DNA from: Protoeuglena noctilucae
Taxonomy: Eukaryota
Reading direction: 5' to 3'
Assembly (NCBI GenBank): GCA_958009085.1
Contig: OY253670.1
Span: 1,364,001-1,428,000, forward strand
Length of the DNA: 64,000 bases
A program made the translations under genes and the position numbers. Shown in pieces: positions 34,877 through 53,200 of the stretch (position 1 is its first letter; every line of letters starts with the position of its first letter). The notes under the pieces were generated by a model. That model worked only from the letters and a program-made list of their open reading frames with translations. It searched no databases and had not been told where the DNA came from.

Positions 34877-37800
34877 ATGCGGCGTAACTCGGCGAATTCG
34901 CCGGGCGACGGCCGTCCCGGTATCCCAGTGGACAGTTTAGAGGACGATCTCGATAGCATGAGCCGGCCAGCTGGCCTCGTTAAGAGGGTCGAGAGCAGCA
35001 GCGACAGCGAGAGCGACGACGCGCCGGTCCGCCCCCCGCGCGTTCCACGCGCCCCAGCCGCCCGCGTTCAGCGTTCGTCGCACACGGCAGCGTGTGTGGA
35101 TGAGCTTGTCGACCGCGTCCAATCGCTGGAGGTCGTCGATGGCGATGCGTTTCGCGAGAGGAAGGAGGGCGGTGGGGGCGGAAGGAAGCCAGGGGGCGAG
35201 GAGGCGCAGGAGCGGGCGAGGTCGGACGCGTCGTCAAGATGTGCCGGGGCAGAGGGCAGCGGGGAGCGCGCTCCCTCGCCGAGAGACGCGGGTGATGCTG
35301 GGCCCGAGGGCGCCGCGGTGGGGCTGGAGCTGGGGGAGGGCCGCTTCCGGCTGCCACGCCCCGTTTACGAGGGTCTCTTTGCGCACCAGGTCGAGGGCGT
35401 CACGTGGCTGTGGGGACTGTACGACCAGGTGCGACGTGGAGCTGGCGGGGGGGCGCTGTATGCCGCCCACCGTTGCGACCGACACCACTTCTGCCTCCCT
35501 GCGCCTGCAGGGCCGTGGGGGCATCCTGGCTGACGACATGGGTGAATGCGCGTGCTGCTGATGATCGCAGCTCCAGCCACGGCCAGGGCAAGAGCAATCC
35601 CGCATGTCACTCTGCTGTTGCGCCCTCGCAGGCCTGGGGAAGACCATGCAGGTGTGCGCCTTCTTGCGAGGGCTGCAGGCGTCCGGGCTGGCCACGCGCT
35701 CCCTGGTGGTGGCGCCCGTGAGCCTGACCGCGCACTGGGCAGCCGAGCTGGGCAAATGCGGCCTGGGAGACCACGTGAGGGTCACAGGGCAGGCTTGCGC
35801 TGCTGCTCGTTCCGCGACCCTGCCTGTTCCACGCCGCCAACTCCCCTTCTCCCCAGGTCCACCTCTTCTGCGAGGGCTCCCGCGCCGACAAGCTGAGGGG
35901 CCTGCGCGCCTGCCTCTCCCGGGGCGGCGTGCTCGTCACCACGTACGGCATGGTGCTGCACCACCGCGACGCCCTCGCCCTCGACGCTGCGGCGGCCACC
36001 GCGCTGTGCGGGGAGGGGCCCTGGAGTGCCTCCCTGGGGCACGGCGCACGGTGGGACTGCGTGGTCCTGGACGAGGGGCACAAGATCAAGAACCCCAAGA
36101 CCAAGCTGGCGCAGGCCGCGCGGGCCATCGCCTCCCGCGTCCGGTGGGTCGCCAGCGAAGCAGCGGGGGGGCGGGGGCGCCCGTGGCAGGCTGGCTCAGT
36201 CGCCGCAACGCTCTGTGTCCCAGGCTCGTCATCTCCGGGACTCCCGTCCAGAACCACCTGGGGGAGATGTGGGCTCTGTTCGACTGGGCGCTCCCCAGCC
36301 TCCTGGGCGACGCCAAGTTCTTCAAGAACTACTTCGAGCGGGCCATCACGGCGGGGGTAGACCGGGAGGCGGACGTGCACGTGCGCATGCGGGGGCAGCT
36401 GGTGGCGCAGGTGGGCGGGATTGGAGATCGCAGCGGGGCCTGGCGTGTCGGGCCTGCCGTAGCTTGACCAGGCGGTCTGTCCCCTGCAGGAACTGCGTGC
36501 CCGCATCGCGTCCTACTTCCTCCGACGCGAGAAGGCCGAGGTGCTGCTGACCAGGGACAAGACTGCGGAGTGGCGCCTGGAAAAGGGGGGCCCCGGCGGG
36601 GAGCGGAGCGGCGCCCTGTCCGAGGGCAAGCAAAGCGCAGATGAGGCGCGTGAAGACGCGCGCGCAACGTCCGCCGAGCACAGCGAAGCGGGGTCGGCGT
36701 CGAGCGGCCCCGGTCAGCAGCTGGGCCGCAAGAACGACCTCATCGTGTGGCTGCGGCTGTCGGCCACCCAGCGCCACGTGTACGAGGCTTTCCTGAACTC
36801 GGCCTCGGTGCACGCGGCCCTCAACCAGGCCAACTCGCCCCTCGCGGCCCTGACAGGTGACGGGCGCCTCTGGCCTGCGTGGACAGGGAAAGACGTCGGC
36901 GTGAGGGCGCGCGTGGGCCTCGGACGGACGCGTGAGGGTCAGCGCAATGTTGGTCCCTCGCCCTTCCAGTGCTCAAAAAGATCTGCGACCACCCGGCGCT
37001 GCTGAGCCAGAACATGACGCGGGAGGTGATTGAGGGCGCGGCACGCAAGCTGGGCCGGAAGGGACGCGGCACCCGGCATGCGAGCGACCGCGACACCGAC
37101 GAGTCGTCTGACAAGGACGACGAGGAGAGCGACGTGGGGAGCGCGGGGAGTGATGGGGAGGGGCGGGGGACGCCCGTCGGGCGTGCGGCGGGGGCGGTGC
37201 TGGGGGCGCCCCCCACGCCGGGGCTCGTGGCCGGGGGCTCGATGGACGTGGGCTGGTGGGAGGAGGCGGCGCGGGTGAGCCCTGAGAATGACTGCGAGTT
37301 CTGGCCGAAGGCTGACGGCGGGCTGCGGTGAGCACGGCCACCCATTCCTGTCCCCCAGACGAGTGGCGGCGTGGAGGCTCTGCTGAGCCGGGAGCTGTCC
37401 AGCCAGGGTGTGGGAGCGTCCCCGAAGACGACCTTCTGCCTCGACCTCATCCGCGAGCTCAGCGGCCAGGGCCACCGCACACTGGTCTTCAGCCAAAGGC
37501 GAGCAGGGGCACGGGCGGGTGATGGGGCCCGCGCTCTGCATCCCCGCGTGCCATCCCCGGCCAGGCTTCCCCCCGCAGCAAGGTGATGCTCGACATTGTG
37601 CAGGCGGCGCTCTCGGCCGAGCCCATCACCTTCCTCCGCATCGACGGGGACGTGGCCTCGGGGGCCCAGCGGCAGAGCCTGGTGGAGCGATTCCAGGCGA
37701 GGAGGCGGCACGGGCGCGTGATGTGCATGCGGATGCGGGTGGTCGCCTTGCGGGCCACTCATGCCAGCCGCGTGCCTCGCAGACGGACCCCGCGATTCCC

Positions 37801-39107
37801 GTCATGCTCCTGACGTCGGGCGTGGGCGGGCTGGGCCTCACGCTCACTGCTGCCGACCGCGTCGTCATTCTGGACCCCAGCTGGAACCCCAGCACCGACA
37901 ACCAGGCCGTGGACCGTGCCTTCCGCATCGGACAGACGAGAGACGTGGTCGTCTACCGCCTCATCACGTGCGGGACGGTGGAGGAGAAGATATACCGGAA
38001 GCAGGTCTTCAAGCACGGTCTGTCGCGGAGCACCACCGGGGAGGAGGATGTGGTGCGCTACTTCAGCAGCCAGGACCTCCGCCAGCTCTTCATGGTGTCC
38101 GCCGCGGGCCTGGAGGTGTCCGAGACGCAGCGGCAGCTCAGCCGCATGCACGCCCACCAGCGCGTCGCCACAGAGGAGGTGCAGGCGCACATCCGGCGCC
38201 TGGAATCCCTGCCTTCCGTCGCGGGGATCTCTGACCACGATCTTCTTTTTCGCAACGATGCTGCCGACTCTGCGCAGGGGGCGGCTGGCGATGTCGGTGA
38301 GGCGCCCGCCCCTCGCCTCCCCAGCGCGCCTGTCTTGCCTGGCGCCGCCGCCTCCACCGCCCTCGCATGCGCCCTGGGTCCCGCAGGCAAGCAGCGCGCG
38401 GCGGCGCGGGCCGCCTGGGGCAAGCAGAGGGGCGGACCTCTCGCCCGCATCGCTGCATCCGCCACCACGGCCGCGGGGCCCAGCGGCCCAGGTCCCTCGG
38501 GGCTCCTCGCCGACGTGCGCCTGGGCCCTGCTCCGTGGCACCCCGTCGACAGAGCCGCGCTGCAGGCTATTCCTGTCGGGGGCGAGGCGCTGCAGAAAGC
38601 GGGCGACGGACGGGGCACGGCGGGGTCGCTGGACATGACGCCCCTGGCCCAGTCGCTGGCGGAGGTGGAGACAGAGGTAAGCCGTGGCGGCGGCAGAGAG
38701 TGTCGGGGATGTCGCGAGCAGCGCGTGGGGTGATCCGTGCTCGCGCCGGCACCTCGCAGTCGTCGTCCCGCCAGGCGCGCGCGGCTGCCCACGAGCTCCG
38801 GGACAAGCAGCGTCGGCTCGAGCGCATGCTGGCGGAGATGGCCGAGCGCATGCCGGACGGTGGCCAGAAGCTGAGGGAGCAGCTGGAGGACACGCGGCGG
38901 AAACTCGCCGCTCTGGGGGCGAGCGCGGAGGAGCCGCAGCGAGCCTCCCTGGCACAGCGGCCGGACGACACGAATCTCCTGTCGAAGCTTGACAAGTACC
39001 GCCGCATCGTCGAGAGCCGCGACTTCGCGGCCCGCTATTCCGCCGAGGAGCAGCGGAAGATCCGCGAGCGGTACGACCAGTACGCGGCGGCGGTGGGGCA
39101 CAACTGA
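34877..39107 (+). CDS. SNF2-family translocase, ERCC6L/PICH (CHR24)-like
   Basis: GILADDMGLGKTMQ, VLDEGHKIKN, SGTPVQN, KKICDHP, VFSQSKVMLD, RIDG, DPSWNP..QAVDRAFRIGQ, YRKQVFK. Two GC-AG introns. Confidence 0.93.
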
Positions 39108-39243
39108 GCATCGCCGCGGGCTGAAAGACGGACTTTGTCTTTGGTAGTCCTGTTAGCGTAGGGATGGTGTCGAGCTGTGCAGGCTGGTATCACCGGCATC
39201 GGTGCGTCTGAGTTGGGGAGTCTTGAAGATCGGTGGACACCGG

Positions 39244-39915
39244 CCGTGCTCACGGTGCTGGCGCAGTGCATGTTCGTGACGTCCATCGTCACGGTCCTGT
39301 GGACGCTGTTCGGCTACTCTCTGACCTTCTCTGACGCGGGGATGAAGGAGGGCGTGGTGTCGCTGGCGTCCTTCATCGGCAACATGGACAAGGCGCTGAT
39401 GAAAGGCGTTGAGACGGGCATCGTGGGCACCATCCCGGAGTCCCTGTGGTTCTGCTTCCAGCTCACCTTCGCCATCATCACCCCCGCGCTCGTGGTGGGC
39501 GCCTTTGCCGAGCGCATGAAGTTCTCCGCCTCCATCCTCTTCCTCACGCTGTGGTCCTGCCTCGTCTACTACCCCGTCGGCCACATGGTCTGGGCCGGCC
39601 CGGGGTCCTTCCTCGGGGACCTGAACGCCCTGGACTTTGCCGGCGGCCTCGTGGTCCACCTCACGTCGGGGGTCGCAGGCGAGCTTTGCTTGCTCCGGGG
39701 GCCGCCTGTGGGACCGCTGCCAAACGCGGGGCTCCAACCCGTCCTACCCCGGCCGTGCTCGCAGCCCTGGTCGCGGCGTTGATGGTGGGCCGCCGGCGCA
39801 AGGCGACGATGGCGCCCCACAACTTGCCGATGGCCGTCACGGGCGCTGGGATGCTGTGGGTCGGCTGGTTCGGCTTCAACGCGGGCTCGGCCGTGTCCGC
39901 GTCGACGGCTGCGGC
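39244..39915 (+). pseudogene. Truncated, near-identical internal duplicate of the AMT gene
   Basis: Matches 29487-30158 at offset 9757, intron included; one substitution seen. Lacks the N-terminus and the second pore His. Confidence 0.93.
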
Positions 39916-40118
39916 ATTGTGCGGGCTTTTGCGAGCTGGAGGGTTTGACCTCAGTAGGAAATCACGCCCCCAACGAACCTCTCCCGACGGCTTCCCGACG
40001 GACCATCGTTCATTTCATTATACCGTTGATGCATTCGACGGGCGTGGGCAAGCTAAATTAGCGCTAGTAGCGGCACTTTCTCTCGCGACGGTTAGGTCGC
40101 ATCGTCTCGACATCAGCC

Positions 40119-42092
40119 ATGCTGATCCTGCTGAGTGGATCCCGAGCGTTTCGGGAGGACGAGATTCCGGGGCGTCTGTCCCCCCCGGCGCTGTCCTGGA
40201 CCCGCGCAGCACTGGACGCCCAGCATGCGCTCGTCTTGGAGCAGCTGCGAGCGCTATCCGCGGAGGAACTCCACAATGTCCTGGGAATCAACATGCGGGC
40301 CGCGGAGTTGAACCACTCGCGCTATGCGGGCTGGGAGGAGCAGCCCAAAGCCCCTGCGCTTTTGGCCTTCTCCGGCGAGGTATGGCCGATTGATAGGCGG
40401 TCTGGCATGCCGGACGTCGTCACTGTCTTACTGACGCTCTTGTCGATGTCCTCGCAGGGCCGGCCCGCGAACCAGGCTTACCGGAGCCTCGCAGCACATG
40501 ACCTGTCTGTGGCGGACGTGGAGTGGGCCCAAGAGCACGTCCGCATTCTCTCGCCGCTCTACGGAATCCTCCGGCCCCTGGACGCTATCCGCCCCCACTG
40601 CCTGGATGCCACATCCGTGAGACGACGCCTTGCATCGCCCTCACGTTTGCGAAACTGTTGCTGACACCATGCTGCCCAACGAGCCCTTGTCCCCCTACAG
40701 ACCCTCACCATGCCGGGAGGCGTGTCCCTGCCGGCGTTCTGGGGCGCGGCCGTCGCGGAGCACATCAACTCCTGCCTGGAGGGGCAGCCCGCCTCCGAGG
40801 GGCGTTTCGTGCTCCACTGTGCGGCGGACGAGGACTGGGCGCTGGTGGACGCGGCAGCCCTCCGGTTCCCGGTCGTACGGTGCCGCTTCCCGGAAAGCGC
40901 GTCGTACGAGCGGCAGGGGGAAGGGTCCCTCACCCGGCACCTCATCGAGCAGCGGGTGAGGGCGTCAGAGGGCTCCGTGACATTTAAGACAGCGCTAACC
41001 CCGACCTCCACTGCGGGGCTGGTCATCCTCCGATGCGCACTCGCTCCCTCGGCGCTCGCAGGCCACGTCCCTGGACCAGGTGCGGTCCTTCTCTGGAGAC
41101 CGCGGCAGGGGCCACGACTGGAGGCTCGACGAGGCGGCGTTGGACGACCAAGTGCTCGTGTGGATCGTCTCGCGGCTGCACGTCCCGCTGACGGGGTCGA
41201 GGGCGGAGGCACAGCGGCAGCTGGAAGGTGCGGTGTGGGGATAGCACGAGGGTTGCACCCGGCTCTCTTCGCTCGTCGTAAGCAGCTGCGCAGCCAGTGA
41301 CTCATAGAATCTGTATCACGCGCCCCAGAGGCCCATGCGGTGGAGATGGTGCGAGAGAAGGAGGAGCGGGAGCGGGAGCGGGAAGAGGGCGCAGGAGAGG
41401 CTGGCATGGAGCTGGCGGAGGTGGCCCAGGTGGGGGCAGAGCCCCCCGCGGAGGCCCCCGTCGAGGAGGAGGGCGAGGGCGGCGGTGATGGCGCTGCGGG
41501 GGCGGAGGCCGTGGCGCCGGCCCAGGTAGTCGGGGCGGGGGGGGTCGAGGTGCCGGTGGACGCGGTGGCGGCAGACCAGGCGCATGGCGAGCCGGCGATT
41601 GCGCCTCCCGAGGCGGAGGGAGCGGCGGACGTGGAAGAGGAGGGCGAGGGGGAGAGGGCGCAGGAAGACGTGGCGGGAGCGGGGGAGGCGGAGACGGGGC
41701 TGGGGGAGGAGGGGGACGGGGGCGCCAAGCCGCCCGCTGATGTGGGCGCCGGTGGCAGCGAAGAGGGCAAGGATGCCGAGGAGGAGGGGGCGGGCGCGGA
41801 GGGGGAGCACGTCGAGGAGGAGGTGAAGAAGCCAGGGAAAGGGAAGGGACGGAAGGGTGCGAAGAAGAAGGGGGCAGCCAAGAAGGGCGCCAGCAAGGCG
41901 GGCTCTCACACGGCGAAGGGCCGGCGCGCCCCTTCCGCGGCTGCGGAGGGGGGGAAGGGCGCGGCTGTGCAGGAGGAGGAGCCGGCGCGTGAGACGCGGG
42001 CGGGCAAGGGCAAGAGGAAGCGGGCGGAGCACCAGGAGGAGCCGCAGCACGAGGACCCGGTGGCGAAGCGCACCAGGTCGAAGCGGGCGTAG
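40119..42092 (+). CDS. Divergent YaaA (UPF0246)-like protein with long acidic then basic tail
   Basis: MLILLS, ALLAFSGEAYRSL, RILSPLYGILRPLDAIRP, LPAFWG. Introns at 40956 and 41228-41328 join the E-rich/K-rich 250-aa ORF in frame. Confidence 0.78.
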
Positions 42093-42248
42093 TAGCGAGG
42101 CGGGCTTGGCCGGCATGGACGCGAGCAGCGCGTTGAATGGTAATGGCTGAGTCAGGGTGCTGCCGGTGGCTGGCAACGCACCAATGTGCGGCGTTTGAAG
42201 CCCCACGAGTAGCCATCTTCCTGTTTCTCGCCCGCTTCCTCTTTTGTC

Positions 42249-43901
42249 ATGGTGCATCATTGTCACTGCTGCCATCAGCGAAGGGGGGAAGACGAGACGG
42301 TCGTGTGCTGCGGGACCAGCACCGGGCGACGGCACGCGTGGTGCACGCGGTGCATACGGGTACGCAGCCGGCCCCGGCGATGTGCGCTTGCGCGCATTCG
42401 AGGCTCACGCTGGCAAGCTACGCGAGCTTCCTCTCGCGCCTGCCGCAGAGGTGGCTGAAACAGAGCCCACAGCTCGCGCGCGACCCCGACGCGAGGTGGC
42501 AGTGTCCCAAATGTAACGGAGGCGTGTGCCCGTGCCCCGGATGTAGGAGGAGCCGGCGGCAACCTGCTCTCTGGGCAGGTGAATCACCTGCCCTGCGTGC
42601 GGCGTGTCGATTGAGCCGCACCGCCGATGCCGTCGCTCAGCGACCTGTCCAGACTCCGCCGCGGATGCAGGGGACGACGATGGTTCGGACGACTTTGCCT
42701 CTGTCGAACCCGCGGGACTGAGCTCCCAACAAACCCCATGCCCAGCTCCCAGCACACAGCGCCGCGGCGACGCGTCATCTCTCGACCCCAATGAGCGCGC
42801 TGCTGACGCGAGCGCGCCGAGAAGCGCGAGGCCTACTCGCCGCAAGCGCCCTCCCGGCCCCGACCTGCCCGCCACGCCCGTCCGAGATGTGCTCTCGGCG
42901 CTGCGGAGCCCCCACGCGCAGTCCCCGCGCGCCACGCCCGCGAGTGCCGTCTCAGCGCACGAGGGACCTTTCGCGGGCTTCCTCTTCGTGAGCCCTTCCC
43001 AGAGCCCTGCCTCGCACGCCGTCCCGACTCCCGCTCGGGCGGACGCCGCAGCAGGCTCGCATGGAGAGGTGCGGTCGTCGAGGCTCTCGCCCGGCTCTCC
43101 GTCACTGCCATCGTCGGGCCCGCCGCCGACTCCCGAGCGAGTCGCACCGCGGCGGCCACCCGTGAGACGGCACCCGCGTCCGCAGCCGGCGCACCGGATC
43201 AAGCTGGCAGCGCTCCAGGGACCCGCTCAGCTGTGGACGCGCAGGCGAGGGCGTGCTCATTGAGATGCTCCCTGGCGCGCACCGCTAGACCCGGGCGGGG
43301 AGCATGGTAGCACGGTGCATGCGCTGCGCTTCACGCGGACCCTTCCCTTGCGCCTTGGGTTGCAGGAGGCCAGACTGGGAGCCTCCGCCGTCCCCGTGGG
43401 GGTTTCTGCAGGAGGAGCTGTGGCGGGAGCCTTGGAAGGTCCTCGTGGCGTGCATGCTGCTGAACCAGACGACGGGGGCGGCCGTGCGCGACGTCATCTG
43501 GCGGCTGTTTGAGGCCGTGCCGGACCCGGAGCGCGCGGTGCAGGTGGACGCGGCGGTTATCGAGGGCATCATCCGCCCGCTGGGGCTCTTCCGGAAGCGC
43601 TCCGCAGACATCCAGCGCATGTCGCGGGAGTTCATGCACGCCCCATGGACGGACGTCGGGCAGCTGCATGGGTGAGGCGCCGGGGATGGACGCATGCCTG
43701 GCATAGAGCCTGGCCTGCGCGGTGACCTCGCCCATGGTCGTGCCTCCCAGGGTGGGCAAGTATGCCTCGGACGCGTACAAGATGTTTGTGGAGGGGCGGT
43801 GGCGGGAGCTGGCCCCCGACGACAAGGAACTCAAGAAATACCACGAGTGGCTCGTCGCCACGGGCGGCCAGGGTACGGGATTACGCAGGGAGGCCGGGTA
43901 G
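42249..43901 (+). CDS. zf-4CXXC_R1-like zinc finger fused to MBD4-type HhH DNA glycosylase
   Basis: Finger CHCCHQR..C..HAWCTRC..WQCPKCNGGVCPCPGCRR. Glycosylase PPPSPWGFLQE..PWKVLVACMLLNQT..PLGL..LHGVGKYASDAY..PDDKELKKY. Confidence 0.85.
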
Positions 43902-44001
43902 AGCAGTCGAGATGCGGTGCAGGGCAAAGCCCTTGATGGACATGTCGCATTCAATGCTAGTACTAGTCTGCCGAAGGAGCTCGCAGCGCCCTGCGGAGGC
44001 C

Positions 44002-47000
44002 TCAGCCCTCCAGCCCCTGCGTTCCCGGGCGCAGCGCCACGTCCCATGCCGAGTCCAGGATGGCCGGCGCGGCGTCCCCTTGGCTGAAGCCGTCAGGCGC
44101 CTCCGCCGCGTCCGACTCCTTGGGAGGTGGTGCAGGGCGCCACCGCATCGCCCCCTTCAAGTCTGCGATAGCGGCGGGAGGAGCAGCGTCACGCAGGCAC
44201 CATTGCATCCCCGACAGCGTTGGCTTCCCCCCGAGCCTTGCCGCGTCTCACCGTGGCTGAACCGCCGCTCGAGCGCCGACCGCCGCGCGGCGTAGACGGT
44301 GCCCAGCGCACGCTTGTAGTGGTCCGGATTGTGGTAACGCGAAATGGAGCCGTCCACGCCGTAGGCGGGGCCTGCCAGAATCTCAAGGGGGTGCGGGCTG
44401 TCCATGAAGGCCAGGAAGGCCTCGCGCACGCAGCCCGGGTCGGAGAACTCCGGCTCAGGCTTGGCGCGGGCGGCGGCGGCGCGGCGGAGGTCGTTGGCGT
44501 GGCGTCGCGCGTTGGCGCGGGACGTGGGTGTGGGCGCAGAGAAGGACCAGAGGCCGGGAGTGGGGGGCAGAAGAGGGTGGTAGCCGTCCTGCAAGCAGAC
44601 GGGTCTTCGCGGTCAGCGGTGCCAGTTCCCACTGTTGGGTCCAACCCATGCCAGGACAGCGCTGCCGGCCGCAGCGCTCGTCACCTGCCCGACATAGACC
44701 TGGTCCTTGTGCGGCTGGAGAGCAAAGACGCGCCCGATGTGCGAGTACATGAGCACCTTGCCCGAAAGGGGCGACGCCGACTTGAGGGGACCGTGGTCGC
44801 TGTACTTCTTGCCCCACGACCGCATGAAATCGCGGACGGGGCTGTAGTCGCAGGTGAAGGCGCGAGGCACGATATCGCGGTGCATGATGATGTTGCGCAC
44901 CATGTCCTGCAGAGCCAGGCGCGGGGGGAGCACCGATCAGCACCGTTGCGTGTGGCTGATGGCGTGCCGTGCCTGCCCCATCGCCCGGCCCCTCACCTCC
45001 GGCAGGCCGAACCGCTCGAGGATGCTGCCGTGGCTGTCGGACGTGTCGGGCCGGTCGCACGCCTCGCCGTGGTAGTCGGCGTGGCACCCCGTGGCCGAGC
45101 ACTCCCAGGCGTCCCAGAAGGCCGAGGCGACCCCGAAGGTGTACGTGGGGGCCATGGCCCAGGCCGGCAGCACCCCCCGGTGCTTGTACATGAGCATGAG
45201 GGCGATGCCCAGGGCGCCCCCCAGCGAATGCCCCGTGAAGCACACCTTGGCAAAGGGGCTCCGGGCCAGGTGCTCCTCCACCAGGGGAAGCAGCCGGTCA
45301 TACAGTTGCATGGCCACCGAGTAGACGCCCCGGTGGATGATGACGCCGATCCGCGGGTCCTCGAACTCCACGGGCTCGAACGTCAGGTTGGTGATCCAGC
45401 TCTCGAGGTTGTCGGTCCCCTGCACCACGACGTACCGCGTCTGCGACACGGGGTCGTCCGCCACGTACCACTCCACGGGGAGGGTCGCACCCTGGTCGGG
45501 GCCGCAGGGGTACTCCGGGGAGTACTCGCGCGACGCCGCCCCCTCCCCCGCTGCCGCCTTGCTCTCCTTCTTCTCCCGCTGCCACGCCAGGAAGGACGTG
45601 TTGCTGGTGCCCTCCAAGATGCCCGCCACTGCGAGCAGACGCAGGCGGCGCGGGCTCGGACTCGACGGACGAGGGGCGACGGAGGAAGCCGCCGCTCGCA
45701 GCGACCACGCCTCACAAGTGCTGCTGATGGCCGACCCCGCGTACCCCGCCGCATCCGACACGTGCCCCGCCAGCCGCTCGTGCAAGGGCCTCCCGGCCTT
45801 GACCGCCGCGTCCTTGGCCTCCTCCAGCTTGACGCTCACCACGCCCTGGGGCGTCGGGGACCCCTCCGCCGCCGACCCCGGCGCCCCCTCCGGGCGGGCC
45901 GTGACCGTCACGTCCACGCGCGCGGCCACCTTGGGCACGCGCGAGATGCGGTCCAACGCGTACGCCGTCGCCTCGTCCATCTGCCCGTGCGCCGCTGCCC
46001 GCGGCTCCTCCGGCGGCACGTCGCACATGCCGTCCGCCATGGCGAAGACGCCGTGGGCCGAGTCGGAGGGCTTGAACAGCGGCAGGTCGCAGGCCCGCGA
46101 GGTCGTGATGAGCACGAGGCGGTGGAGACGCATCAGCGAGGACGGCGTGAGCTTGTGGAACTGCGGACAGTGCAGCGGCCGGCCTCCCGTGGGCCATGCG
46201 ACGCGGGCTGGGGGCGGGCTGCGCGGCAGGCCGGCTCGGCGCCACGCAGACGCATCCCCAGCGCGACTATCACCTTGTAAGTCAGGCAGCAGAGGTCGCA
46301 GAGCATGCGGACGTAGCGCATCTCGCTCGTGCTCGCTGGCTTCAGGTACGACACCACGTCAGCCAGCACCGAGCGCTTCTCGTTGCCCTGCGAGCGCGGG
46401 GAGATGCGCACGCTTACAAGGACGCGGGCGCAGGGGCGCGAACCTCCCGCAACGCGCCGGGCGCGTGCACGTCCCGGGACGCAGCGACCCGCGTGTCGGG
46501 CCCGCGGCTCGCCTTGGCCGCCGTCCCCTCCGCGAGGTCCTCTCTCCGGGGGTCCGAGACGCTGGCCGTGCGCGCGTACTGGACGAGGCGCTCGGTGCTC
46601 AGGTAGCCCCCCACCGTCCCCAGCCACGGACCGACATGGCCCACCGTGCTCGTGGCCGTGTTCCACAGCGTGGACACCGCGGAGGTCCACAGCCCGCCCT
46701 CATTCCTAGCAGGGCGCTCCGGGGACCGCTCGGGCTTGTCGCGGTCCACGGGGGCGTCGACCGGCGCGAGAACCGAGACGACCGGCGCCCGGGCCGTGCC
46801 CTTCTTGCCCTGCGCGCCGGGGCGGGCGACGTTAATTCGAAAAGCGAGCCGATGAAAGAGGGAGACGGGCGCAGATAGTCGAGGGCGCGACGCGGCCGCT
46901 GCCCGAGTGCGCTGCACCCCCGCGAATGAAAGGCTCCGCTCGCCCGGGGTCGACGGGGCCCGGCGCGGCTCGAGGGCGGCATCGGAAGGCGACACGGGGC

Positions 47001-50216: not shown

Positions 50217-53200
50217 ATGGCAGACTCCCCACCTGAGGAAGGGGGCGGCAAAGGTGACGGTCCTGGGTTGGGGCTCCAGTTCGCTTGTTCTTCGCGAGTG
50301 CTCCAGACGCGCGGCGCCTGTTACTTGGATGAAACGCGAAAGCCCCTTTGACGGAATTCGCTTGCTCCCTTTCCCTGCCCCCAGGCCCCCCCCGCAAGCG
50401 CCTGACCAAGAAGACCCCCGAGCAGGTGGCGGCGCTGGAGGCGGCCTTCGCGTCGAACCCCAACCCGTCGTCGGAGGAGTGCCATGAGCTTTCCGAGGCG
50501 TGGGGGCTGACGCTGGCGCAGGTGGAGCAGTGGTTTGGGCACCGCCGGGCAAAGGAGCGCAAGCGGGCGCGGGAGGAGGAGAGCGGGGCGTCGGGGCGGG
50601 AGGGCGCGGGGCGGGGCGTGGCGTCGCTCGCGGACGCGTCGCGAGCCTTCTCGGCGCAGCCCGAGTGGGCGGCGGCGGCGGGGCAGGGTCGCCTGCCGGA
50701 GGTGGCGGTGGACCCTGGGGGGTTTGACCCCGTGCCCGGCGAGGAGACGGACGGGGAGGGCGCAGGCGGGACCGGGGCCGGGGCGGCGGGTTCCGGCAAG
50801 CGAGGCACCAAGCGCCGGGCGTCGGGGGCGGGGCCGGAGACGGCCCAGGACAAGAAGCGTCGGCTGGAGGAGGGGCGGTTGGGGAAGGAGATGGAGCGGC
50901 TGGTGGCGCGTGCGGAGGAGATCCGTGCGCGCATGGCGTCTCGGGAGGAGTTCCGGGCGCGGGGAGGGCAGGGGAAGGAGGAGGAACGGGCGGCGGGGCC
51001 GGGGGCAGCGGGGGGGGAGGCCATGGCGGTGGACGCAACGGCGGAAGGGGAGGCGGCGGGGCAGGTGAAGGGGGAGAGCGGGGAGGGGGAGAGGGGGGAG
51101 GCGGGGGACGGCGGGGCGGCTGAGCCGAAGGGCGAGGGCGAGGACTTGGCGGAGGAGGACGCCAAGGACGCGGAAGTGAGGGACCTGAGCGCGCCGTGCC
51201 CGCGCATCCACGCCAGTCTCTGCGCGTGTTGGGCATCTGGCGTGTGCATGACTGCCCTGACGACCCCCTTCCCCTCTGACATGGCAGGCTCTTGCGGACG
51301 TGGAGGCGCGGCTGGCCCAGATCCAGGAGCGCCTGGCGCAGCTGGAGGTGCAGCGGGAGGAGGCAGAGGAGCGGAAAGCGAGGGCGGAGGAGGCGAGGGC
51401 CAAGGTGGGGCCTGGCGCAGGGCGCCTTGCAATGTGCAGCCGGGCGCTGTGCTGGCGCGCCGGTGGACGAAGTGTTGGCTGGCGGTGGATGGTCGCAGAA
51501 GGAGCGCGAGAAGGAGCAGGAGCGGCTGCTCCGTGGCATGGAGAAGGAGCAGGCGCGGCTGCGGAAGGAGGCGGAGAAGGAGCGGGCCAAGGTGGAGCGG
51601 GAGGCGGGCAAGCGGCGGTCGGGGGGGCGGGCAACCAAGTGAGTGGTGGAGTCGCGGGGTGCCGCGGCACCTGCGGGTAGACCTGGCCCCGTCGGTCGCC
51701 CCGTGCGGCTTCGCGCACGGGTCGAACCCCGCCCCCCGCGCTCCCAGGGAGATGGACAAGGCGGCCAAGGACACACTGCGGCGCATGGACCACAAGCGCG
51801 CACGGCTGGCGGCCGAGGGGGCGCTCTCGGAGGACCAGCACATCGAGTGGGAGCGGGTCATGATGCCGCACGTGGAGCGCGTGGCAGAGGCGCACGGGGT
51901 CGGGGCTGCGGAGTTGCGGTGAGAGGGCGGGGGGCTGCCTGGGGTGACGGTGGGACGATCCTACCCGTGCTGCGCCTGGTTCGATCGCAACGCCGGCCCT
52001 GTCACCTGCAGGGAGTCCCTCCGCGAGTACCGCGTCCTGGGCGACGACTCCATCGTCGGCATGGCGTTTCGGTGGATGGACCGCCACGCAGCACCGCCTG
52101 CCCCGGCCGGCGCCCCCCCCGCCCCCCCTCCCGTCCTCCTGGAGCCGACCCCGCGCGAGTCGCAGCTGGCCCTGGCCGTCCGCGACGTGCTGCGCCTGCC
52201 GGACCCCGACCTGCCGACCTTCCCCCCCGACTCCCTGGGCCTGCCCCCCGCGTGGGTCGCCGGGTTCGCTGACGGCGTCCTGGACGGCGTGCTCGAGGTT
52301 CACGGCGTGCTGCACGGCTTCGCGTGCCTCCTGGGCGTGCTGCCCTGCACCGTTGCCGAGCTGGCCCTGGCGTTTGAGGAGGGGCAGCGGTCGCAGCTGC
52401 TCAGCGAGGTGTTCGTGGCGGCGCTGCAGCTGCTGCAGGCGGACATGGAGGAGAGTCTCGCGGTGATGGCCAGGTGAGGGACGAGGAGGGGGTTGAGGCT
52501 TGGCTCGAGCCTGGGTGTCGCTCGCTGCCTGTCGCCGACTGCAAGGACCCCAGCATCGGCGCCCGCTGCACTTGCAGGGGTGGCCCGGCGTCCGCATCCC
52601 AGGGGGACAAGCAACCCGTGCAGACGGCGTCGGCCCTGCTGAACGAGGCCTGGGCGTGGGGGTTCGAGCATGACCTGTGGCGCGCGCACCTGAACCCCCT
52701 CACGTGGCCCGAGGTGCTGCGGCAGGTGGCCATCTCCTGTGGATGGGGACCCCGGCGCAAGAAGACAGTCCGGCAGGTGGCGGCGGGGTTTGTGGCTGAG
52801 GTGAGGGGGGGGCGGGGCAGGGTGGCAAGGGCACCGGTCCAGAGAGCGTGCCGATGGGGCCAGGGGCAACAGGGTCCGTCTGTCCCGTGCCTGCGCAGGA
52901 GGTGGAGCACCCGACGATCCCTGGCCTCACCCTGAAGCTCCCCCAGGAGATTGGGCCAGGCACGGTCAAGTACGCCGTATGGCACGTGCTGGCCACAGGT
53001 GAGGGGCGGCGTGGATGGAAGCCAGGCATTTCAAATATCTATGCGCTTTTGAAGTCATCTACGGCCAAGCCCGCAGTGACGTCCGAGGGCCTGAAGGTGG
53101 AGGACATCCTCGAGCGCATCCAGAACCAGGGCATCCGGGAGATCGGCGGCCGGACGCCCAAGATCACCGTGGCGGGGGCGTGCCGGGAGGGCCTGCAGCA

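Follow-up and report, generated by a model that had tools for sequence, protein, structure and literature searches.

The glycosylase gene, its transcripts, and its domains

The window analyzed here is a 64,000-nucleotide stretch of contig OY253670.1 of Protoeuglena noctilucae, with a G+C content of about 69% throughout and with spliced eukaryotic genes. At positions 42249 to 43901 on the + strand lies one nuclear gene of five exons and four introns, the joined exons of which (1272 nt) form an open frame of 423 codons followed by TAG. Starting from the ATG at 42249, a Cys-rich frame leads into a frame rich in Pro, Ala, Ser, and Arg and then into two pieces that resemble the DNA glycosylase MBD4. 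On balance, we favor the interpretation that this gene encodes a diverged zinc finger of the zf-4CXXC_R1 family, a basic disordered linker, and an MBD4-type glycosylase, and that the finger tethers the enzyme.

Exon 1 (42249..42359) opens with the start codon and encodes residues 1 to 37, the first half of the finger, including Cys5 and Cys8, Cys20 and Cys21, and Cys32 and Cys35, together with His9 and Gln10 at the positions of R274 and Q275 in the zf-4CXXC_R1 protein CDCA7. Intron 1 (42360..42448, GT..AG, 89 nt) splits the finger, and exon 2 (42449..42578) supplies its second half and a basic tail, with Trp39 at the position of CDCA7 R304 and with Cys56/59, Cys64, and Cys66/69. Intron 2 (42579..42670, GT..AG, 92 nt) is followed by exon 3 (42671..43244), which encodes the Pro/Ala/Ser/Arg-rich linker (about residues 76 to 270), a basic, disordered region of about 195 residues with an isoelectric point of 11.2 and an RRKR run at residue 137, in which no Pfam family was matched. 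Intron 3 (43245..43365, GC..AG, 121 nt) leads from the linker frame to the glycosylase frame. Exon 4 (43366..43671) encodes the N-terminal two thirds of the MBD4-type HhH-GPD domain, and after intron 4 (43672..43750, GT..AG, 79 nt), exon 5 (43751..43901) encodes the remainder, with the codon of Asp381 at 43770-43772 and the TAG at 43899-43901.

The transcripts of this gene were evaluated in public sequencing runs. It was found that four marine metatranscriptome runs of one study contained 0.61 to 0.68 of the words of the stretch, and that four runs labeled with one organism contained all of them. Three RNA runs (X1 to X3) and one of the runs with all of the words, of unrecorded kind, that we took to be DNA (X5) were mapped on positions 41000 to 44600. 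The same four + strand joints, corresponding to introns 1 to 4, were present in all three RNA runs, whereas X5 gave one unspliced contig over the whole stretch with none of the four joints. The third joint has a five-letter ambiguity that allows six possible cuts, of which the sole canonical one is GC..AG. A 1130 nt contig (X1 record 2, 42241 to 43672) and a second contig (X2 record 5, 42251 to beyond 44592) each carry the finger, linker, and glycosylase exons together, spanning exon 1 to exon 4 or to exon 5 without any intron, and X3 covers the same ground by means of two overlapping contigs. Therefore, the finger, linker, and glycosylase are on one spliced RNA, since contigs of all three RNA runs cross all of these parts. 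The initial annotation, made from the letters of the window, had placed splice donors after 42359 and 42578, a GC intron at 43245-43365, and the end of the last intron at 43750, and had joined the finger to the enzyme; these positions and the proposed start and stop proved correct (the end of intron 2 had not been placed), and the parts do not lie on separate transcripts in any of the three runs.

The RNA contigs start at 42241, 42251, and 42259, so that the shortest 5′ untranslated region seen is 42241..42248. At these starts there was no loose end and no joint upstream, and no RNA cover was found over 41484-42209. The contig starts, which come from a single study, give a weak hint that the transcript starts just 5′ of the ATG.

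The glycosylase part was assessed by comparison of the separate exons with Pfam and with proteins of solved structure. Exon 4 alone matched HhH-GPD (PF00730) at 36.0 bits (E 9.5e-9; gathering score 26.2), and its best solved relatives were 15 distinct MBD4 catalytic-domain sequences in the PDB (E 1e-17 to 2e-18 over about 100 residues), with weaker matches to endonuclease III (E 1.6e-6). Exon 5 alone matched only MBD4 (E about 1e-7). Exon 4 aligns with MBD4 chain positions 12 to 111 and exon 5 continues this alignment without a break (positions 112 to 145), which indicates that the splice restores an unbroken domain. Asp381, in a G-x-D turn, corresponds to the Asp in the MBD4 chains, which we take to be the catalytic residue of MBD4, and this Asp is conserved in 99% of 140 relatives. 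Forty columns are conserved to at least 90% in these relatives; the window matches 35 of them, and the five mismatches are conservative (F/L, A/Q, F/Y, M/I, and V/C). The residue following a conserved Leu-Asn is Gln in the window, and at this position the 140 relatives have Lys (48), Arg (46), or Gln (15). No exon matched the methyl-CpG-binding domain MBD (PF01429) at E values up to 10. As judged from these comparisons, the C-terminus is a complete MBD4-type monofunctional HhH-GPD glycosylase with an intact catalytic core, as had been proposed in the initial annotation.

Relatives with the same architecture were found by a HMMER search of the glycosylase exon against 1.84 billion protein representatives, which gave 1844 matches at E <=0.001, the best 150 of which were scanned with Pfam. 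Three of these 150 have an N-terminal zf-4CXXC_R1 finger (P0037 at 34.6, P0050 at 34.4, and P0013 at 21.6 bits), and two have an MBD (P0060 and P0126). The cluster mates P0153 and P0154, and P0162, which was found by means of an alignment of the fingers, matched the finger family (PF10497) at 32 to 34 bits. Thus six proteins have the finger, five of which (P0037, P0050, P0153, P0154, and P0162) exceed the PF10497 gathering score with 32 to 35 bits, with P0013 below it, and all six have a C-terminal MBD4-type domain. P0013 is from Chlorokybus atmophyticus; P0050, P0153, and P0154 are three copies from Spirogloea muscicola; P0162 is from Closterium sp. NIES-53; and P0037 is from a transcript-sized contig. 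A search of 161 proteins with a regular expression and a family-specific hidden Markov model (HMM) found the finger in those six only. The relatives begin with Met-Val or Met-Ala, and in all six the finger begins within about 35 residues of the N-terminus; these short N-termini likewise point to a transcript start near the ATG of the window gene.

Other searches were less productive. Word-index searches were weak: the glycosylase exon returned three proteins, the Chlorokybus finger region returned only itself, and the finger alignment returned its three source proteins and Closterium P0162. The full-length protein of the window is absent from the protein collection, in which no 100% match exceeded 180 residues, and it is represented by fragments only (P0004, P0155, and P0156). 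A Protein Atlas search with P0050 found no cluster that carries both families; its best score, 0.79, is a lead only. With three carriers among the 150 best glycosylase relatives, the fusion architecture is conserved but rare, and it is not confined to this species.

The finger occupies residues 5 to 69 and contains 12 Cys: those of the CXXC motifs at residues 5, 32, 56, and 66, and those at 7, 20, 21, and 64. Because Pfam was scanned exon by exon, the joined finger was assessed through its relatives. Residues 3 to 75 aligned with P0013 at 42.9 bits, with P0050, P0153, and P0154 at about 35 bits, and with P0037 at 31 bits, and the alignment crosses the exon junction without a break. The Cys are collinear with those of the relatives and, through the relatives, with those of CDCA7 chain 8yv8_K; an acidic/Gly stretch follows the last Cys. 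By this homology, the N-terminus is a diverged zf-4CXXC_R1-type multi-zinc finger.

Origin of the fusion and neighboring genes

The history of the fusion was evaluated with trees of the glycosylase domain. A full tree had 142 rows, after 18 rows with fewer than 120 matched domain positions were left out. A second tree (LG+G4, quick search), on which the approximately unbiased (AU) test was done, had 67 rows: 61 of the 63 rows on the side of the first tree that holds all finger rows, the window, and five outside rows; P0156, a fragment of the window's own protein, was left out. A group of 27 rows, with a Shimodaira–Hasegawa-like approximate likelihood ratio test (SH-aLRT) value of 94, contains the window, five of the six finger proteins, the MBD-bearing rows, and the five land-plant-type rows that had been picked as outgroup, one of which is P0048 from Anisodus. 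P0162 stands elsewhere, on a very long branch. Forcing the window and the six finger proteins into one group cost 31.6 log-likelihood units and was not rejected (p-AU 0.155), a test weakened by the fact that the group was chosen after the first tree. A single origin of the fusion is therefore allowed by the tree and not demonstrated by it.

The fingers themselves were found to share two features that are absent from the aligned CDCA7 chains: an invariant His ahead of Trp-Cys and, following the sixth Cys, the motif L-[KH]-[QK]-S. These shared features favor common descent, and we infer that the fusion family, consisting of the window gene and the genes of Chlorokybus, Spirogloea, and Closterium, probably had one origin in green algae.

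Other N-terminal modules were seen on MBD4-type proteins in the same survey. A short double-CXXC motif (G-C-x-K-C-R, about five residues, G-C-x-R-C-R, and then P-x-F-[RK]-P-R) is present at the N-terminus of 11 of 159 MBD4-type proteins (P0006, P0157, P0008, P0011, P0012, P0017, P0021, P0022, P0033, P0137, and P0113), one of which is from Sanguina aurantia. None of the 11 N-termini had a Pfam match, and by its motif the double-CXXC may represent another zinc module, so far undescribed, in the MBD4-like enzymes of algae; seven of the 10 rows with this motif fall in a separate group of 23 rows in the tree. The Anisodus proteins P0048 and P0158 are land-plant MBD4-like proteins and have an N-terminal Myb/SANT-like DNA-binding domain (31.2 bits), P0048 being the sole such case among the best 150 relatives. 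The Protein Atlas cluster nearest to the Spirogloea protein (score 0.79) is a giant-virus cluster of 54 members with HhH-GPD in 63% and zf-PARP in 57%, which as a lead only suggests another combination of a zinc finger with a glycosylase.

On the + strand, open reading frame (ORF) pieces with SNF2-related and Helicase_C domains lie at 35565-38730, about 4 to 6 kb upstream of the glycosylase gene. Other neighbors on this side are ammonium-transporter pieces at 39162-40390 and a YaaA-like peroxide-stress piece at 40071-40661. The immediately upstream gene has a Lys/Glu/Gly-rich ORF at 41301-42092 (+ strand, stop at 42090-42092) and an intron at 41226-41326 that was seen in one RNA run; its stop lies about 150 nt before the first RNA base of the glycosylase gene, so that the intergenic spacing is very tight. 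Downstream, a convergent Lipase_3 gene lies within 43902-46358 on the - strand, with its ORF at 44940-46358 and an intron at 44163-44251 (CT..AC). The Lipase_3 and glycosylase genes share RNA contigs, which indicates that their 3′ ends abut or overlap; X2 record 5 continues into the Lipase_3 gene, which reflects overlapping 3′ ends in the assembly and not one transcript. A homeodomain ORF lies farther downstream at 50333-51919.

CDCA7 positions and the role of the finger

To place the finger residues on CDCA7, the Spirogloea relative P0050 was used as an intermediate. Among solved structures, the Spirogloea finger matched best to the CDCA7 chains 8yv8_K, 8tlk_A, and 8tle_A, with the whole finger aligned. 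Chain 8yv8_K (108 residues) was taken as the construct of residues 264-371 in PMC11343034, so that chain position n corresponds to residue 263+n. According to that paper, the methyl group is touched by R274, which also pairs with the G that follows; Q275 senses the unmethylated strand, where a second methyl group would clash; and R304 and S330 hold the DNA backbone (PMC11343034, in part). The substitutions R274C/H and R304H are mutations of ICF syndrome (immunodeficiency with centromeric instability and facial anomalies), and R274H/C is predicted to disrupt DNA binding (PMC11343034, in part).

It was found that Spirogloea P0050 keeps R274, Q275, G294, and R304, and that P0037 keeps the R, Q, and G and has Lys at the position of R304. 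In the window, R274 is replaced by His9 and R304 by Trp39, G294 falls on a one-residue gap, Gln10 matches Q275, and Pro67 stands at the position of S330. Of the three ICF-critical positions proposed earlier for this gene, the assignments of His to R274 and of Trp to R304 were confirmed, whereas the His assigned to G294 is displaced: G294 falls on the gap, which adjoins His29, the His that is invariant in the fusion family. No residue of the fusion family corresponds to the fourth Cys of CDCA7, whose place as a ligand may be taken by the invariant His. Class I zf-4CXXC_R1 proteins, which are the CDCA7 orthologues, are defined by the retention of all three of R274, G294, and R304 (PMC10538959); P0050 retains all three, and the window, with His9, the gap, and Trp39, falls outside class I.

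By analogy with mammalian MBD4 and Arabidopsis MBD4L, which excise T, U, and 5-substituted U from mispairs with G (PMC6728418, in part), the enzyme in the proposed mechanism would most likely remove these bases, preferably at CpG. The finger would most likely act as a DNA or chromatin tether, in the place that the MBD has in animal MBD4, and plant MBD4-like enzymes without an MBD have been described (PMC6728418, in part). From its residues, the finger of this species probably binds DNA with weakened or changed discrimination of methyl groups. A finger that reads the methylation state of CpG is plausible for the Spirogloea-type proteins and doubtful for this species; the methyl-reading idea is better supported for Spirogloea because R274, Q275, G294, and R304 are kept there.

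Several results weigh against the interpretation of a tethering zf-4CXXC_R1 finger fused to the enzyme. Exon 1 alone had no Pfam match, and exon 2 alone scored 19.4 bits against zf-4CXXC_R1 (PF10497; E 0.0012), less than the gathering score of 22.7; the family assignment made at the outset from the Cys spacing agrees with the order and spacing of the Cys and with the fingers of the relatives, and falls short in the score of the window's own exon. The Pfam matches of exon 2 and of all relatives stop at model position 76 to 78 of 99, which indicates that these fingers lack a C-terminal part that the CDCA7 domain has. Against solved structures, exon 2 alone gave solely weak matches to PHD fingers (E 0.18 and worse), and the match between the Spirogloea finger and CDCA7 is marginal (E 0.076 to 0.2) with a high Cys bias. 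The His at R274 is a residue of the ICF-patient type, so that the reading of DNA or of methyl groups may be lost. The observed/expected ratio of CpG in the window is 0.97, which says nothing clear on methylation. The glycosylase tree is poorly resolved with few supported branches, the fused proteins are not grouped by the tree alone, and the presence of the finger requires four changes on it. Lastly, the RNA is from one study and consists of assembled contigs, with which additional shorter isoforms are compatible.

A more far-reaching account, which we regard as less likely than not, is that the zf-4CXXC_R1-MBD4 fusion is the ancestral form in the green lineage, with a finger that would read the methylation of the CpG dyad (hemimethylated CpG, or 5-methylcytosine (5mC) in CpG opposite a TpG or UpG lesion) and would thereby guide base excision to deaminated cytosines of methylated DNA, that land plants lost the finger, and that it was re-tuned in the present species through His9 and Trp39.

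Somewhat less likely still is that the finger of this species itself reads hemimethylated CpG, or 5mCpG/TpG, in the manner of CDCA7, and guides the glycosylase to deaminated 5mC as a stand-in for the MBD, which is the convergent targeting of repair proposed in the initial annotation. By the homology described above, the finger falls within the Pfam family of the CDCA7 sensor of hemimethylated CpG, Gln10 corresponds to Q275, one of the two selectivity residues, the relatives P0050 and P0037 retain the key residues as described above, and, circumstantially, the known task of the fused enzyme is the repair of deaminated 5mC at CpG. However, the residue at the methyl-contacting position R274 is changed as in ICF, and the two backbone-contacting positions are occupied by Trp39 and Pro67. 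Moreover, thymine has a methyl group where Q275 would be expected to clash, as we infer from PMC11343034 (in part), and variants without the ICF residues are not class I, and those of them that have been studied, IBM1 and DMM-1, affect methylation only indirectly (PMC10538959).

It is improbable that the finger is instead a PHD-like or other zinc module for histone tails or for a partner protein, through which the enzyme would be recruited to chromatin indirectly. This would fit the changes at three of the four named DNA-contact positions of CDCA7, the unmatched C-terminal part of the Pfam model, and the fact that the solved-structure matches of exon 2 alone (E 0.18 to 3.6) are to PHD fingers only, by way of a W-x-C-P-x-C end motif. 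These PHD matches are not significant, however, and span only 17 to 23 residues, whereas the alignment with relatives above the zf-4CXXC_R1 cut-off extends over the entire finger, and the best solved matches of the Spirogloea finger are to CDCA7. In addition, a C-x-C-x2-C tail follows the W-x-C-P-x-C in agreement with the CDCA7 alignment, and PHD fingers are not known to have such a tail.

It is very improbable that the gene model is an artefact of separate genes or transcripts, for example with a glycosylase-only protein made from an in-frame ATG near 43304 within the GC intron: GC splice donors are rare, and retention of intron 3 would bring the linker frame to a stop at 43261-43263 and give the glycosylase frame an upstream ATG, but all three RNA runs skip 43245-43365 and join both frames, X1 record 2 and X2 record 5 hold the exons in spliced form, and the two domains are combined in a single protein in six relatives from other organisms.

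Comparison with known systems

Like the product of the window gene, vertebrate MBD4 (MED1) begins with a DNA-reader module and ends, after a long linker, with an enzyme of the same glycosylase type; the module is an MBD in the vertebrate protein, whereas here it is a zf-4CXXC_R1-type multi-zinc finger. Arabidopsis MBD4L (AT3G07930) and the land-plant enzymes resemble it in having an MBD4-type catalytic domain and no MBD (PMC6728418, in part), but none of the land-plant MBD4-like proteins sampled among the 161 carries the finger.

CDCA7, a hemimethylated-CpG sensor (PMC11343034, in part) and an activator of HELLS, and CDCA7L (class I) share with the window protein the zf-4CXXC_R1 type of finger, the order of the Cys, a near-identical spacing, and Q275. 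The CDCA7 finger is C-terminal, whereas the finger here is N-terminal and fused to an enzyme, with no region ahead of it and no sign of the HELLS-binding N-terminal part. Other zf-4CXXC_R1 proteins have DDT/WHIM1 or CHROMO domains (class II) or a JmjC domain (class III, such as IBM1, JMJ24, and DMM-1) (PMC10538959). As in classes II and III, a diverged finger is joined here to a catalytic or adaptor domain related to chromatin or DNA methylation, and the window gene resembles class III in that it lacks the ICF residues; unlike in either class, the partner domain is a DNA repair glycosylase. The partners known for the CDCA7-finger family are remodeler-related or histone-demethylase domains (PMC10538959; PMC11343034, the latter in part).

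The initial annotation had held this architecture to be undescribed. No description was found in the literature searched, although the proteins themselves are public in other green algae, where they carry no descriptive name. The main text of PMC10538959 does not contain the terms glycosylase, MBD4, or HhH, and the 10 supplements searched do not contain these or ENDO3c or Nth. In about 8.4 million full texts, no paper combined zf-4CXXC_R1 with glycosylase or 4CXXC with MBD4; the texts with 4CXXC and glycosylase were unrelated reviews only, as judged from the listing. Among the matches listed, no title for CDCA7 with MBD4 pointed to a fusion, and no title for MBD4L pointed to a zinc finger. The precomputed Pfam column of the protein collection lists both families for none of four representatives, and in our own Pfam scans one domain or the other falls below its gathering score in every one of the six relatives, so that the architecture would be hidden from listings based on Pfam. 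The fusion is thus also present, though apparently undescribed, in a few freshwater green algae.

The CDCA7 finger was recognized as a sensor of hemimethylated CpG only in 2023-2024. Its natural fusion to a repair enzyme for deaminated 5mC in at least four algal lineages provides an independent comparative link between this finger family and methylated CpG, and hints that the fusion is a second means, found in nature, of directing mismatch repair to CpG sites. The orthologues can be ordered by their key residues, from Spirogloea with all of them through Chlorokybus with some to the present species with the ICF-type His, and they offer a compact natural comparison system. The fusion also suggests how the MBD-less MBD4L of plants may once have been targeted. 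If the fusion was ancestrally a methyl reader, it would be an independent solution to the problem that animals solved with the MBD, and the CDCA7-type finger would be a portable reader of methyl-CpG with a role beyond maintenance methylation.

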